The notes: a model not told the origin generated them from the sequence alone. A stretch of DNA of 64,000 bases from Clostridiaceae bacterium (GCA_040797845.1 JBFNFA010000002.1:9809-73808); one strand, 5' to 3'. Shown: positions 53,594-59,680, counted from the stretch's first letter. Translations and numbers: made by a program.

Positions 53594-53797
53594 ATTCTTT
53601 TTTGCCTAATGAAAGCCTAGAAAAGCTTAGACATGCCTCCCTTCATAATTTAAATCTTAATTTTTTAATTTTATTATTATAGCGCTAGGCTTTGATTTTA
53701 TTTTTATAGGTCTTGAAATTAAGAACCACTTGCTAATATACCACGTTATTTTGTTCTTGACAAATACAATTTTAATACCCCTAAAAATTAATATATA

Positions 53798-53825
53798 AAG
53801 GCAAAGAGACTCCCTCTTTGCCCTT
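53798..53825 (-). terminator. Terminator-like hairpin downstream of the ABC operon
   Basis: AAGGCAAAGAG-ACTCC-CTCTTTGCCCTT. Confidence 0.55.
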
Positions 53826-53834
53826 ATACGTTAA

Positions 53835-54037: not shown

Positions 54038-55003
54038 CTATTTTACAATTAAATCTTCAATATTAATCTCTTTTTCTTGTAGTCCATTCTTTAACATAAA
54101 CTCTTGTGTTCTTTTAAGTTCTTCTATGTCTTTATCACTTATATTGCTATCAAAATCATACCAAGAATACATCTCTTTTGTTTCTTCAGGTGTTAATCCA
54201 ACTTCCTTAGCTGTTATCTCCATAGCTTCATCAAGATTATTATTTATATAGTCAATAGTATCTTTATGAACTTTTTTAAATCTATTAACTACTTCTTTGT
54301 TTTCCTCTAAAAACTTTTCACTTACAGCAGTTACTATAGTACCTTCTACTATTCCTTTTCCATTAGCTACAACTTTTCCTCCTGCCTTTATAGCATTTAA
54401 AGCCGCTGGTCCAGCTAAAAGTGCTACATCTACACTTCCATTATTAAGTGCAGCCAAAGCTTCTGGTATTCCCATATTTATAAATTCTATATCATCCTGT
54501 TTTAGTCCATCCTTTTCTAAGGTTCCAAGTAAAAGTTGATGAAGTACTGTTCCTTTAGGTCCCGCTACCTTTTTTCCTAAAAGATCCTTTGAGCTTTTTA
54601 TATCATCATTCTTTGTTATTATCATGAAAGCTTTAGGCGCTCTACTATATACATTAATTATTTTTAAATCTACTCCATTGGATGCAGCTAAAATAGCAGA
54701 AGTTCCTCCAAGAGCATGTACAAATTGTATTTCTCCAGCAGCAAGAGCTTGAGTTTGTTGAGGTCCTGAGGTTATTTCATGCCACTTTACCTCTATTTTG
54801 TCCTTTTCAAATTCTTTCTCAAAGCTTTCTTTGTTCTTTTCAATTATTGATGGTACATTTAAAGGTGCCTTTACATAAGTTATGTTTATTGGTTTATTAT
54901 TCTCCCCTTTAGCTTTCTTTTCTGTACTAGCACACCCAGCTAATACACTTCCCCCTATAGCAACTGTTAGTAATAATGACAATATCTTTTTTCCTTTTAT
55001 CAT
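54038..55003 (-). CDS. ABC substrate-binding lipoprotein, SsuA/NMT1-like
   Basis: Lipobox LAGC, SGPQQTQALAAG, GKKVAGPKGTVLHQLL. Confidence 0.88.
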   Translation of the reverse strand: MIKGKKILSLLLTVAIGGSVLAGCASTEKKAKGENNKPINITYVKAPLNVPSIIEKNKESFEKEFEKDKIEVKWHEITSGPQQTQALAAGEIQFVHALGGTSAILAASNGVDLKIINVYSRAPKAFMIITKNDDIKSSKDLLGKKVAGPKGTVLHQLLLGTLEKDGLKQDDIEFINMGIPEALAALNNGSVDVALLAGPAALNAIKAGGKVVANGKGIVEGTIVTAVSEKFLEENKEVVNRFKKVHKDTIDYINNNLDEAMEITAKEVGLTPEETKEMYSWYDFDSNISDKDIEELKRTQEFMLKNGLQEKEINIEDLIVK

Positions 55004-55031
55004 GTGTATCCCTCCAATTTATTTATACTAA

Positions 55032-55756
55032 TTAATATTCATCTTTAGAAAGGGTTTTTAAAATGTCTTCCTTAATATATATAAGATTATTTAAAGCTAA
55101 ATTTCTTGGGTAACTTTCCTCTATTCTATAATCTTTTATTACCTTTCCTTTATCCAAAATTATAATTCTATGCCCTAGTAAAATTGCCTCATCTACATTA
55201 TGAGTTACAAAAACTATTCCCTTTTTAGTTTCTTCATATAAATTTATAATTTCTCCTTGAAGATTAGATCTTGTGAAGTAATCCAATGCTGCAAAAGGCT
55301 CGTCCATTAACATTATATCTGGCTCATAAGCAAGGGCACGAGCTATGGAGACTCTGTGAGCCATCCCCCTGAAAGCTGGCTAGGATAAGCTTCTGAAAAC
55401 TTCTCTAACTTCATAAGCTTCAAAAGTTTATCTTCTATTTCCCTATTCCCTTTCTTTAAATAGAAAGTTATATTTTCTCTTACTGTAAGCCAAGGCATAA
55501 GTCTGCTCTCTTGAAATACCATTCCTATTTTAGGTTTAACTTCAACCTTATTCCTATAAAATGATATATTCCCTAAAGTAGCATCTTCTAATTTTGCTAA
55601 TAATCTTAATAGAGTTGTTTTTCCACATCCACTTTTGCCAAGTATTATAGTTATCATATTGCTTTCAATATTTAAATTTATACCCTCTAAAACTCTATAA
55701 CTTTTCCCATTTACTATGTAATCTTTACTTAAATCATTTATGCTATATCCTCTCAT
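55032..55756 (-). pseudogene. SsuB-like ABC ATPase split by a single-base frameshift
   Basis: 55343-55756 has GKSGCGKTT and ends LSGG; 55032-55364 continues MAHRVSIARAL..MDEPF..VTH. Junction is a G5 run (C5 at 55365-55369) where six bases restore the frame. Confidence 0.85.
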
Positions 55757-56510
55757 TATCGTCTACCCCTATGTCCCACACATTAATCCTTTTTACTAAA
55801 ATGGAAAATAAATAATCCATTAAACTTCCTAAAATCCCTATACATAAAATACCCACAATTACTACATCTGACCTTGAAAGCTGCTGTCCATCTAAAATAA
55901 GATATCCTAATCCCGATGAAGCCGCTACCATTTCTGCCCCTATTATAGCTCTCCAACTATAGCCTATACCAAGCCTCATTCCAACTAATATGTTAGGGAG
56001 TGCAGAAGGAACTACTATTTTAAAAAATATATCTTTTTTAGGAAGATCAAAAATTTTTCCTACTTCAATTAATTTTTTATCGCAACTTTCTACGCCTTTT
56101 ATGGTATTTAAGAACACTGGAAAAAAGGAGGCTAATATTATAATTATTATTTTAGACTTTTCCCCAATACCGAACCATAATATAAGCATTGGAACTAAAG
56201 CTAAAGGTGGAGTGTGTCTTATAAACTCTAATGCTGGTTTAAAGTAAATATATATTTTCTTATTTACTCCAAATAAAATTCCAATGGGAATTGCTAAAAG
56301 TAGAGTTATAAAAAATCCTATTAAAACTCTTATTAAGCTATATCCTATATGTTTAAATAAAACTCCTGAAGCCATAAGACTGGCCGCACTTTGAACTACG
56401 GATTGTGGTGAAGGAAGTATATAAGAAGTCCAATAGTTATTTATGCTACCTATATACCATAGAAAAACTATGGCTATAATAAGTATATATCCTTTTAACT
56501 TATACCCCAT
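55743..56510 (-). CDS. ABC permease, SsuC-like
   Basis: ILPSPQSV, IRHTPPLAL, EAA-like loop, AEMVAASSGLGY. Confidence 0.9.
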   Translation of the reverse strand: MGYKLKGYILIIAIVFLWYIGSINNYWTSYILPSPQSVVQSAASLMASGVLFKHIGYSLIRVLIGFFITLLLAIPIGILFGVNKKIYIYFKPALEFIRHTPPLALVPMLILWFGIGEKSKIIIIILASFFPVFLNTIKGVESCDKKLIEVGKIFDLPKKDIFFKIVVPSALPNILVGMRLGIGYSWRAIIGAEMVAASSGLGYLILDGQQLSRSDVVIVGILCIGILGSLMDYLFSILVKRINVWDIGVDDNERI

Positions 56511-57147
56511 CTCCCCTATTACATCCTCCTTTACACAACAGCATCTCTATAAGATTAACTTTTTCCTTTGTTTTCTCTATATTTTTTACCTCTTTTAATA
56601 TTTCTTCTTCTCCGCTTACCTCTGAAATATCTAGGTTTAAATCTCTAAAGAAACCAAGTGGGATAGGCGATTCACTACATCTATCTTCCTTTTTTATATG
56701 TAATCTTTCACATATATCATTCCAGGTTTCAAAAACAATCCTCGTCTTTCCTTCTTTTTCAAATATATGATTTCCCATGTCCTTTAGACAATTACAAGGA
56801 GTAGTTATAAAAAGTCTATTATCTTCGTCATTCTTTATGTATAAATCATATAAAGATCTAGCAGTATGAATTAATATTGGCTCTATTTTAGGTATGTGAA
56901 ATTTACTATGATTTATTTTATTTTCTATGTATTCAATAGCTGCAGGACATCTTGTGTCCAATATTATTTTATCTTCTTTTTCACTACATAAGGTTTTAAA
57001 TTTATTTTTCACCACATCTATTTGACTAGGAGGCTCTACCACTTCATAATCTTTTCTTTTTAGCTCTTGTAATAAATTTTCAAATTTAATCCCATACATA
57101 TTCTTAACAACTGGGTTTATCCAAATATAATTCATGATTAATTTCAT
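56500..57147 (-). CDS. Stand-alone [FeFe]-hydrogenase H-domain-like (Nar1-like) Fe-S protein
   Basis: DTRCPAA, ITTPCNCLK and EMLLCKGGCNRGDG match degenerate H-cluster motifs L1, L2 and L3. Confidence 0.72.
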   Translation of the reverse strand: MKLIMNYIWINPVVKNMYGIKFENLLQELKRKDYEVVEPPSQIDVVKNKFKTLCSEKEDKIILDTRCPAAIEYIENKINHSKFHIPKIEPILIHTARSLYDLYIKNDEDNRLFITTPCNCLKDMGNHIFEKEGKTRIVFETWNDICERLHIKKEDRCSESPIPLGFFRDLNLDISEVSGEEEILKEVKNIEKTKEKVNLIEMLLCKGGCNRGDGV

Positions 57148-57201
57148 CCTTTAAATCTTTTATTTTATATAATATAGCAAACAGTTTTATAATGCTAATT
57201 A

Positions 57202-57216
57202 TGATAATGATTATCA
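57202..57216. promoter_or_regulatory. Fur box upstream of the Fe-S protein/ABC operon
   Basis: TGATAATGATTATCA is an exact Firmicute 7-1-7 consensus TGATAATnATTATCA; 17/19 to the classical box (57203-57221); 55 nt upstream of the start. Confidence 0.85.
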
Positions 57217-57484
57217 ATATCATCATCTGTTACATTTTATCAATTCTATAAAAGTAAGTCAATATATGAATACTACATCATTTCCTCTATTTCATATTTT
57301 ATTACTATATTCCTCTTTTTTCCCTATAATCTATTAAATTTTGCTAGTTTTTTATACAAATATAACTTGATAATATAATTTTTAAGAAATTATTAAGAAT
57401 TTGGACAAATTCCTTTAATAAAATCTCTATAAATCTTTGGTATAATTAATAAATATATGAAACTAATACGAGGTAAGTGATGCT

Positions 57485-58399
57485 ATGAGAAAACTAAAAA
57501 GATTATTTAGAACAATATTTTTTATGATATTTATAGTGGCTATGTTTAAAGTCCTACATAATTTTAATTTTAAAAAAGATGTGCTTCCTGCGTCTGCTAT
57601 GAAAATCTATATTAAAGCTTCCGATGAAGTAAGCGAAAACAAACTTCAAGTAAATTGGAAATATGTAGCCGCATTGGATTCCTTGCGTATAAATAATGAC
57701 TTTTCAAAGGCAAATATAGAGGATGCAAAAAAAATAGCTGATGAATTTTTAGAGGTAAATACTTCAGAAAATAAATTTAAGAATTCTAAATATAAATTAT
57801 TGAGTTTTGATGAAGTTATAAACAAATTTTCCTATACCGATAAAGAGAAGGAGAAAATTTATAAATTTTTAGATCAATTAAATGATAAATATTTAGTTCA
57901 AGTAGATGAGAGTAAAAAAGTCTTCATAGAGGAATTAACTCCTACAGCTATAGACATATATAAAAATTATGATATTCTTCCCTCTGTAGCAATTGGACAA
58001 GCTATTATAGAATCTAATTGGGGTAATTCTACCCTTTCTTCTGAACATAATAATTTATTTGGCATAAAGTCTACTAAGTCATGGAAAGGCAAAACTGTAG
58101 ATATGAAGACTTCTGAAAACTATGATGATACCATAGTTGCTACATTTAGAGCCTATGATTCTCAAAAAGATTCCTTAGCTGATTATGCACAATTCCTTAA
58201 AAATAATCAAAGATATAAAGAAAATGGAGTTTTCAATGCCGTTGATTACATAAATCAAGCTAAAGCAATTGATAAAGCTGGATATAGCACAAAAAAGGAT
58301 GAGGATGGGAAAAATATGTATGCAGATCTTCTCATACAAATTATAAAGGAATATAATTTACAGCTTATCGATAGTAAGGTTCAACAAGAATCTTTTTAA
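57485..58399 (+). CDS. GH73 glucosaminidase-domain peptidoglycan hydrolase
   Basis: PSVAIGQAIIESNWG, NNLFGIK, FRAY, AGYST, YADLL; N-terminal TM. Confidence 0.9.
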   Translation: MRKLKRLFRTIFFMIFIVAMFKVLHNFNFKKDVLPASAMKIYIKASDEVSENKLQVNWKYVAALDSLRINNDFSKANIEDAKKIADEFLEVNTSENKFKNSKYKLLSFDEVINKFSYTDKEKEKIYKFLDQLNDKYLVQVDESKKVFIEELTPTAIDIYKNYDILPSVAIGQAIIESNWGNSTLSSEHNNLFGIKSTKSWKGKTVDMKTSENYDDTIVATFRAYDSQKDSLADYAQFLKNNQRYKENGVFNAVDYINQAKAIDKAGYSTKKDEDGKNMYADLLIQIIKEYNLQLIDSKVQQESF

Positions 58400-58813: not shown

Positions 58814-59032
58814 TTAAAGGTACTTTTTCAATTCATCTAAGCTATCAATATCAAATATATCCGTAGCTATAACATCAATAGTCTCTTCATCTAAAGCCTT
58901 TATCCTTTGTTTATATTCCTCGGGAATAGATTTAAATTTTTTTATAAGTTGTTTTATAAGAATTTCTGCCTTGCCTTCTTTCATTCCTTCTTTTACTCCG
59001 TCTTCCCTCAACATCTTTCCTATTTCAGTCAT
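58814..59032 (-). CDS. Predicted in-frame internal 72-aa protein (RpnS-like)
   Basis: AAGGAG (59042-59047) lies 9 nt before the ATG at 59032: MTEIGKMLREDG...DELKKYL. Confidence 0.6.
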   Translation of the reverse strand: MTEIGKMLREDGVKEGMKEGKAEILIKQLIKKFKSIPEEYKQRIKALDEETIDVIATDIFDIDSLDELKKYL

Positions 59033-59680
59033 GGACACCAACTCCTTAAATTTTATTTTTGATAATTCATCTCCAAACTTATCAAATAAAGCATATAATA
59101 AGCTTAAACATTGCAATTTTTCATTGCCCTCAGGCATTTTACCTGCTAATTCTATACTGTCTAAGGTTCTTTTGCTTCTACTTTCTTTTCCTCTCATCAA
59201 AGGTATAAAACTTAGTGCTACTATATCTTCACCATTTAAAGTTTCTTCTCTTTCTATCTTATTCTTTAAATACTCCAACTTTTCATCTCCATCTAAGTTT
59301 TTCATATAAAAAGCTTCTATTTCATATTTTATAGTTCCTGCATCTATATAGGTTTCAACATCCTCTATATCCGCTGAATAAATTACTATGGTTCTTATTT
59401 TTCTCTTTTCCTTATAAAAAAGTGATGCATCATAATATAAGAATCTCTTAATATCTTCTTTTTTATCCGTAGTTTGAAATTCAAAATGTAGATAGTTTCC
59501 ATCTTCTGTGTAAAAAAGATAGTCAGTATAGTTAGTTTTAATGTCTATGTTCTTTATTTCAGTTTCTGCCGGAGCTACTATTTTAGTGTCTATACCAAAA
59601 AATTTCACCGCATTATCTTTAAAGAATTCCATAGCCTTTTTTAAAACTGCATCTTCTACTTTATTATAATCCATACTCAT
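58814..59680 (-). CDS. Rpn/YhgA-like PD-(D/E)XK nuclease with C-terminal DUF4351
   Basis: TDYLF...LHFEFQ catalytic-type motif, RFLYY, GVKEGMKEGKAEILIKQLIKKF tail. SD spacing may favour the second Met (59674). Confidence 0.82.
   Translation of the reverse strand: MSMDYNKVEDAVLKKAMEFFKDNAVKFFGIDTKIVAPAETEIKNIDIKTNYTDYLFYTEDGNYLHFEFQTTDKKEDIKRFLYYDASLFYKEKRKIRTIVIYSADIEDVETYIDAGTIKYEIEAFYMKNLDGDEKLEYLKNKIEREETLNGEDIVALSFIPLMRGKESRSKRTLDSIELAGKMPEGNEKLQCLSLLYALFDKFGDELSKIKFKELVSMTEIGKMLREDGVKEGMKEGKAEILIKQLIKKFKSIPEEYKQRIKALDEETIDVIATDIFDIDSLDELKKYL

Follow-up and report, generated by a model that had tools for sequence, protein, structure and literature searches.

Here, we describe a four-gene operon in a 64,000-nt stretch of DNA from a Clostridiaceae bacterium (host genome 4.06 Mb, 30.4% G+C), which was analysed at its full length and is referred to below as the window. 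The operon lies on the minus strand, and its tightly packed genes encode, in order, a small protein resembling the H-domain of [FeFe] hydrogenases (hereafter the mini-H protein), an ATP-binding cassette (ABC) permease, an ABC ATPase and an SsuA-like lipoprotein. The mini-H gene (56500-57147, minus strand) spans an open reading frame (ORF) of 215 aa with predicted [4Fe-4S] ligands at C67, C118, C205 and C209. It is overlapped by 11 nt by the permease gene (55743-56510, minus strand; 255 aa, NitT/TauT type, PF00528 E = 4.7e-31), which is itself overlapped by 14 nt by the ATPase gene. A 28-nt gap then precedes the gene of the substrate-binding protein (SBP; 54038-55003, minus strand), a lipoprotein of 321 aa with the lipobox LAGC. 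A terminator-like hairpin, with a 17-bp stem followed by a T-run (53793-53829, minus strand), stands about 210 nt downstream of the SBP stop codon. The original prediction, a short reading of this DNA from the sequence alone, had described four overlapping or tightly spaced genes, and their order and spacing are indeed present, on the minus strand; however, it had missed that the ATPase gene is split by a 1-nt deletion.

The 337-nt intergenic region upstream of the operon contains both a promoter match and a Fur box. The promoter match is of the sigma-70 type, TTGACT-17-TGnTAAAAT with an extended -10 TG (57234-57262, minus strand), and is the top minus-strand match in the intergenic region (10/12), as a match to the consensus only. 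The Fur box, TGATAATCATTATCA, is an exact 7-1-7 palindrome at 57202-57216, 18 nt downstream of the promoter match, and the first gene begins about 55-65 nt beyond it. With regard to the start of that gene, the ATG at 57147 lacks a ribosome-binding site, and AAAGGA precedes a second ATG at 57135. Because close homologs begin with MNYIW, the ATG at 57135 is probably the true start, giving a product of 211 aa; the 215-aa length given originally would then be slightly too long, while the ORF itself stands.

The ATPase is encoded in two frames. Its N-terminal part, from Walker A to LSGG (55343-55756, minus strand; PF00005 E = 1.6e-19), reads LSGGWLTESP and then meets a stop, six codons past LSGG, and the remainder (MAHRVSIARAL...) continues in the +1 frame at 55032-55364 (minus strand). 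DNA alignment with three relatives, none of which has the deletion, places a single missing base inside the LSGG signature codons, at about 55364-55369. The ATPase is intact in every related locus checked and was called at 241 aa in two genomes. The deletion is either an assembly error or the mark of a real pseudogene, and the system may be inactive in this strain.

The Fur box and its genomic company

The claim of a perfect Fur box was borne out. The exact sequence TGATAATNATTATCA occurs once in the window, at 57202-57216, and five times in the 4.06-Mb host genome, against an expectation from base composition of about 0.005 per 64 kb and about 0.3 per genome. When up to two mismatches are allowed, the pattern is no commoner in the window than in shuffled sequence, and we therefore place weight only on the exact match and on its genomic company. 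That company is telling: the remaining four exact boxes precede feoB, a DUF2325 gene, a gene for a siderophore-type lipoprotein (Peripla_BP_2) and feoA-feoB, and boxes with one mismatch precede a flavodoxin gene, fur itself, a DUF3793 gene and two further feoB genes. A box thus stands at the operon promoter, a Fur protein is encoded in the genome, and the same box occurs at canonical iron genes. Judged from these sites, the operon is part of a Fur regulon of the textbook Gram-positive kind.

Similar boxes accompany the operon elsewhere. Within 200 nt upstream of the orthologous operons, boxes with 0-2 mismatches are found in 12 of 17 named genomes, and additional boxes upstream of the operon, again with 0-2 mismatches, are present in a C. 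difficile-like genome (G321, discussed below) and in one other genome. The sequence TGAGAATAATTCCCA recurs in loci of the Anaerotignum / saphenum group. As a side observation from the host genome, the exact or one-mismatch boxes at C3:302029, C4:274445 and C8:27501 belong to the DUF2325, DUF3793 and Peripla_BP_2 genes; the DUF2325 and DUF3793 families, which are uncharacterised, are candidate members of the clostridial Fur regulon on the strength of these boxes.

The mini-H protein and its family

The mini-H protein is recognisable as an H-domain chiefly by its fold. Pfam model PF02906 (Fe_hyd_lg_C) is matched with 30.9 bits against a cut-off of 22.1, over residues 170-212 only (i.e., the last 43), and the hydrogenase models of NCBIfam are far below their cut-offs (TIGR04105, 23 versus 450; TIGR02512, 22.6 versus 406). 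An AlphaFold2 (AF2) model built from 13 homologs reached a predicted local distance difference test score (pLDDT) of 91.4 and a predicted template modelling (pTM) score of 0.86, and the top 50 Foldseek matches in the PDB were all [FeFe] hydrogenases, with a probability of 1.00 and a TM-score on the query of 0.56-0.68. When 69 family members are combined into a profile, its entire length aligns with residues ~75-296 of multi-domain hydrogenases of 560-610 aa, which carry TACP or SCC at the L1 motif and, by sequence reading, a PAS-like tail that marks the sensory type. This alignment points to the compact H-domains of sensory-type bacterial hydrogenases as the nearest relatives. The H-domain likeness proposed originally is therefore upheld by the fold, and the label 'Nar1-like' attached to it is not. 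An identity with Nar1/NARF was rejected, as the protein has neither an N-terminal ferredoxin-like four-Cys cluster nor a full-size H-domain: it is free of Cys before residue 54, has no conserved Cys before C67, and is only ~205-215 aa long in total.

Four cysteines are retained, as had been proposed, and the residues that make an H-domain catalytic are not. Among the 69 members, no substitution occurs at C67, C118 or C209, and C205 is conserved in at least 90%, with a C205-x3-C209 spacing; the four align with the one Cys of L1, the one of L2 and the two of L3 that hold the H-cluster cubane in hydrogenases. L1 reads DTRCP instead of TSCCP, the family motif being D-x-R-C-P with an invariant Arg and the proton-relay Cys replaced. 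L2 reads TTPCxxLK instead of MPCxxKxxE, the family motif being (T/S)PCxxL with a near-invariant Leu at +3; throughout the family, a Leu takes the place of the Lys which, three residues beyond the L2 Cys, anchors the di-iron site. The earlier reading of TRCP at L1 and of a noncanonical L2 as signs that hydrogenase activity is unlikely agrees with the absence of both the relay Cys and the Lys throughout the family. Taken together, model and alignment identify the protein as a stand-alone compact H-domain with a predicted single [4Fe-4S] cluster.

The comparison with the H-domain of [FeFe] hydrogenases, especially of the group C/D-like sensory enzymes, shows what was kept and what was lost. The two share the two-lobed fold, the four cubane Cys and a replaced L1 relay Cys, the last being a feature of many sensory enzymes. 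In contrast, the mini-H protein stands alone at ~205 aa, lacks ferredoxin and PAS domains, has Leu for Lys, Arg before the L1 Cys and GDG at its C-terminus, and is linked to an ABC importer and to Fur rather than to H2 metabolism.

An exhaustive profile search recovered 183 representative clusters, of which some 100 are full length (197-230 aa), and none of the 183 showed a fusion to other domains. The family is rare (4 of 399 sampled genomes of the class). The linkage seen in the window held up in a gene-neighbourhood survey: all 28 distinct loci that extend downstream of the mini-H gene show the same succession of mini-H, permease, ATPase and SBP genes. The survey covered 17 named genomes, two more genomes of the class, a Lachnospiraceae lineage, Campylobacter concisus and five metagenome contigs; locus L055 comes from the same genome as L011 and was not counted separately. 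Named carriers include C. mobile, C. tetanomorphum, C. lundense, C. ganghwense, C. sporogenes and C. oceanicum, as well as Haloimpatiens, Faecalimonas, Anaerotignum and [Eubacterium] saphenum. The flanks of the operon vary between genomes. In the window, a glucosaminidase-domain gene (57485-58399, plus strand) diverges from the operon and shares its intergenic region, and an Rpn/DUF4351 gene lies farther along (58814-59680, minus strand). In C. concisus, a gene for an Nfu/NifU C-terminal-domain protein of 91 aa (L058:9179-9454) lies ~140 nt downstream of the SBP gene, which may tie the operon once more to the handling of Fe-S clusters.

A maximum-likelihood tree with sensory-type H-domains as its root groups the transporter-linked proteins into a single derived clade (support 93/99), which includes the protein of the C. 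difficile-like genome (locus L054). Below it lies a basal grade, found only in metagenomes, whose members adjoin no transporter and yet carry the same motif set as the transporter-linked proteins (NPV, IDSRCP, PILI, SPC, TW, SPVPLGFF and ELLWCxGGCHKGDGL). In six independent contigs, basal members adjoin radical S-adenosylmethionine (SAM) genes of the HydG/HydE kind, with one such gene on each side where both flanks are present (L062:4520-7983, L065, L066, L074, L081:4261-8444 and L082:3524-5707; members 33-47% mutually identical). The radical-SAM genes of L062 exceed the equivalog cut-offs of HydG (562 bits) and HydE (289 bits). HydE carries an N-terminal HypC domain in two contigs, and [NiFe] hydrogenase genes lie within 5 kb in three. 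One more basal member has an unrelated gene context. These maturase-linked relatives, which had escaped the original prediction, may represent an undescribed maturation or carrier system.

The importer and its binding protein

The permease finds its best NCBIfam matches in SsuC, SaoP and TauC, all under the equivalog cut-offs, and the ATPase likewise does not reach the cut-off of the SsuB model; the ATPase also has no regulatory domain of its own. The SBP, in contrast to these components, passes the family model TIGR01728 SsuA_fam (186.6 versus a cut-off of 163.5). Its AF2 model (pLDDT 87.4) has as top folds the SsuA proteins of E. coli and X. citri and TauA (top 2X26 and 3KSX), with TM-scores of ~0.8 and 22-24% identity. 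Ligand contacts were mapped onto the SBP from published sites through pairwise alignments of hidden Markov models. In these alignments, the site for the sulfonate oxygens appears to be kept, with main-chain Gly80 and Gly99 together with Thr152. However, the Gln side chain of SsuA/TauA aligns with Val44 and their hinge Glu with Phe126, both of which are invariant in 25 SBP orthologs that are 39-98% identical overall. More polar residues are invariant as well (among them N49, Q83, T84, Y119, S120, R121, K144, D192, Y282, D283 and D292). This pattern probably reflects one specific, conserved anionic ligand, and, since the oxyanion site appears to be kept and the Gln and Glu to be replaced by invariant Val and Phe, we infer that the ligand is neither taurine nor a generic alkanesulfonate and that it is connected to iron supply.

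The system therefore resembles SsuABC and TauABC in the fold of its SBP, the SsuA_fam score, the type of its permease and ATPase, and, as aligned, the Gly-Gly-Ser/Thr oxyanion site, and it departs from them in the apparent Val/Phe replacements, in its predicted control by iron rather than by sulfur starvation, in the extra predicted Fe-S protein, and in gene content, as no ssuD/E-like gene was found in the operon or its annotated flanks. A second comparison is with the SAO system of C. difficile, whose ABC transporter SaoX/SaoP/SaoA (Haft, bioRxiv 10.1101/2022.07.06.499078) belongs to a transporter class proposed for metal-containing substrates. SaoP and SaoA are among the best NCBIfam matches to our permease and ATPase. 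Membership in the SAO system was nonetheless rejected: the scores are well short of the cut-offs (167 versus 295 and 91 versus 360), the SBP and permease lack selenocysteine (Sec)/Cys-Cys motifs, and no other Sao genes are nearby. An importer of thiamine precursors (ThiY type) was also rejected, as ThiY (3IX1) is only the eighth fold match, at 16% identity; for this or a riboflavin importer, no riboswitch-like element was noticed on reading the leader sequence, for which no Rfam search was made.

Iron limitation and the proposed role of the mini-H protein

The operon has a counterpart with a published iron response. Berges et al. (2018) listed CD630_29890-29920 with the metal-uptake systems whose abundance in C. 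difficile rises at low iron; the genes are ssuA2, ssuB2, ssuC2 and one for an 'uncharacterized protein, iron hydrogenase-like', and all listed RNA and protein values are positive (PMC6311696). By the account given in that paper, the same result is credited to two earlier studies, with dipyridyl and of fur (PMC6311696). Furthermore, CD2989-2991 are mentioned, as unpublished data, to be up with added cysteine (PMC5767170). Cysteine induction is the opposite of a sulfur-starvation response and fits iron being trapped as sulfide.

The C. difficile-like genome G321 ties these genes to the window. At 2.2 kb from its mini-H gene, this genome (4.1 Mb, one contig) contains a one-mismatch copy of the published CD2989 promoter 40-mer, and its operon has the same gene order as ours, with identities of 40% (mini-H), 55% (permease), 42-48% (ATPase) and 63% (SBP). 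A Fur-like box, TGATAATAATATTCA, with two mismatches (L054:7727-7741, minus strand), lies 22 nt before the mini-H start codon and downstream of a TTGACA-17-TAAACT promoter match. Sequence comparison thus identifies the operon in the window as the ortholog of C. difficile CD2992-CD2989 (i.e., CD630_29920-CD630_29890), with the same four genes in the same order, membership in the same clade and a Fur-like box in both. The two differ in that the box in the window is exact and its ATPase frameshifted, whereas the C. difficile box has two mismatches and the ATPase is ~50 aa longer. As an observation in its own right, the ATPase of G321 (L054:5422-6300; 292 aa) contains a low-complexity insert of ~50 aa between Walker A and the signature, which is absent in all other orthologs. 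For the ortholog, the response of this 'Ssu' system to iron is therefore no new finding, and the operon is a known but uncharacterised one. The original prediction had set the Fur box against the usual response of Ssu systems to sulfur, not iron; with the iron response of an 'Ssu' system already published, this contrast is less surprising than it had seemed. Its broader view of an iron-regulated uptake system with a predicted Fe-S accessory protein, in its terms a putative sensor or scaffold, is strengthened by the Fur box, the conserved linkage and the iron response of the C. difficile ortholog.

We favour the explanation, at a probability of roughly 0.55, that this is a Fur-repressed operon induced by iron starvation, in which the mini-H protein serves as a low-potential redox partner that processes an imported anionic compound. 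When iron is plentiful, Fe(II)-Fur would occupy the box just downstream of the promoter and block transcription. When iron is scarce, the SsuA-fold receptor, the NitT/TauT-type permease, the ATPase and the cytoplasmic 24-kDa mini-H protein would be produced. The latter would carry one predicted [4Fe-4S] cluster on its four conserved Cys, have no hydrogenase activity, and act as a dedicated electron-transfer partner that reduces or otherwise processes the imported compound at the exit of the transporter, e.g., by freeing iron. The iron response in this scheme comes from the literature on the C. difficile ortholog, whereas we infer the cluster binding, the substrate class and the role as a reductase.

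Two considerations lead to this choice. Cells usually cut Fe-S proteins when iron is short, and FhuF, which is induced through Fur, reduces ferric siderophores after their import; an Fe-S protein that is induced under iron shortage, as FhuF is, is therefore probably part of iron acquisition. Also, a [4Fe-4S] redox partner is favoured because the maturase-linked and the transporter-linked contexts share the need for a low-potential one-electron donor. In this respect, the position of the basal relatives between HydG and HydE, radical-SAM enzymes that need a reductant, supports an electron-transfer role. The parallel with FhuF and IrtAB is one of proposed logic only, in that Fur would control a redox-cofactor protein along with an importer. 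The cofactor is a [2Fe-2S] cluster in FhuF and lies in a flavin adenine dinucleotide (FAD) domain in IrtAB, both work with siderophore-type transporters, and neither is known to be related in sequence or fold to the mini-H operon.

Several points weigh against this explanation. The siderophore and iron importers known so far rely on SBPs and permeases of other classes, the SBP encoded here contains no Cys, and the oxyanion site of its SsuA fold would suit a plain sulfur compound equally well. The maturase-linked relatives could point to a carrier of cofactors instead of electron transfer, and the ATPase frameshift may signal decay of the operon in this strain. As for regulation, several higher-GC, non-Clostridium loci have no convincing upstream box, the box of the C. 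difficile-like operon is a match with two mismatches only, and Berges et al. recognised no upstream Fur site, describing the control as indirect (PMC6311696).

Among other explanations, the importer might supply sulfur for Fe-S repair, taking up a sulfonate or other organosulfur compound, with the mini-H protein as an anaerobic desulfonating or reducing stand-in for the O2-dependent SsuD/E. An SBP that scores above the SsuA_fam cut-off, folds like SsuA and keeps the oxyanion site would be expected here, as would the absence of ssuD/E-like genes from the operon and its annotated flanks, and Berges et al. themselves propose an iron-sulfur co-regulation (PMC6311696). On the other hand, the C. difficile ortholog is reported to be induced by cysteine, i.e., by abundant sulfur (PMC5767170), the Gln and Glu side chains of SsuA/TauA are replaced, and the operon is predicted to be under Fur rather than a sulfur regulator, all of which makes this account unlikely in our view. 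We give similarly little credence to the possibility that the mini-H protein is an Fe-S sensor or gate, whose holo-form binds the ATPase or permease and shuts import, while the apo-form that prevails in starvation leaves the importer open. Such a role would suit a protein whose closest kin among hydrogenases are the compact H-domains of sensory-type, multi-domain enzymes, whose gene overlaps that of the permease in a way that suggests stoichiometric co-production, and whose partner ATPase (241 aa in two relatives) has no regulatory domain; yet no H-domain is known to regulate an ABC importer, iron feedback would already come from Fur, and the same motif set is kept in the maturase-linked relatives that have no transporter.

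Other accounts grant the protein more of the chemistry of its hydrogenase relatives. Its di-iron pocket might accept an imported Fe-thiolate, an FeS(aq) fragment or an organo-iron complex, which would make the mini-H protein an iron-passing chaperone. The basal relatives between HydG and HypC-HydE, the builders of Fe(CO)(CN) units, speak in its favour, as do the conserved residues shared by maturase-linked and transporter-linked members, the reported upregulation of the C. difficile operon under conditions in which sulfide from cysteine precipitates iron, and the Nfu-type gene after the operon in C. concisus. However, the idea is wholly conjectural, the protein lacks the anchoring Lys of the di-iron site, the SBP offers neither Cys nor a His-rich site, and no transporter of this class is known to carry iron; we regard it as less likely still than the sulfur-supply and gating accounts. 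A wider version, in which stand-alone mini-H proteins form a new class of iron-unit carriers, is just as doubtful: basal members in uncultured microbes, with HydG and the HypC-HydE fusion near [NiFe] genes, would possibly help to build or ferry Fe(CO)(CN), and the derived clade of Clostridia and Campylobacter, recruited to an ABC importer, would be loaded with imported iron-sulfur or iron-thiolate units in starvation. Least likely of all, and highly improbable, is a functional [FeFe] hydrogenase or H2 sensor of very small size, with maturation by HydEFG. The H-domain fold and the four Cys ligands would allow it, HydG is encoded in 16 of 20 operon-bearing genomes, and relatives adjoin HydG and HydE. 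Against it, the relay Cys and the CN-binding Lys are missing family-wide, the protein at ~24 kDa is well under the smallest active enzyme reported (33 kDa; PMC11216029), and the host genome already encodes five full-length hydrogenases. HydG above the cut-off is also absent from four metagenome-assembled genomes (MAGs) that carry the operon, namely two independent [Eubacterium] saphenum, one Anaerotignum and one small, probably incomplete Faecalimonas, and these transporter-type MAGs indicate that the transporter-linked mini-H protein does not need HydG. A working hydrogenase was rejected on the missing catalytic residues and the hosts without HydG, and, under the redox-partner explanation that we prefer, the mini-H protein would be unable to act as one.

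What the present analysis adds to the known operon is the frameshifted ATPase in this assembly and the recognition, new here, of a stand-alone mini-H-domain family with a maturase-linked basal branch. Greening et al. (2024) noted that the absence of a non-hydrogenase bacterial relative prevents the rooting of the [FeFe] hydrogenase tree. If the proteins were indeed carriers of iron units, the mini-H family would supply that missing relative. At 24 kDa, smaller than the smallest reported hydrogenase, the H-domain described here offers a minimal scaffold for the evolution of the H-cluster site, and its maturase-linked cousins point towards organometallic biochemistry that is still unexplored.

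Strict anaerobes are thought to acquire iron chiefly through Feo and a few siderophore systems. The operon represents an importer of another class, with predicted Fur control and with conservation that reaches from Clostridium to Campylobacter, and its ortholog is reported to be strongly induced in iron-starved C. difficile. Its ligand, once identified, could uncover a new way of acquiring iron or cofactors in the gut and in sediments.

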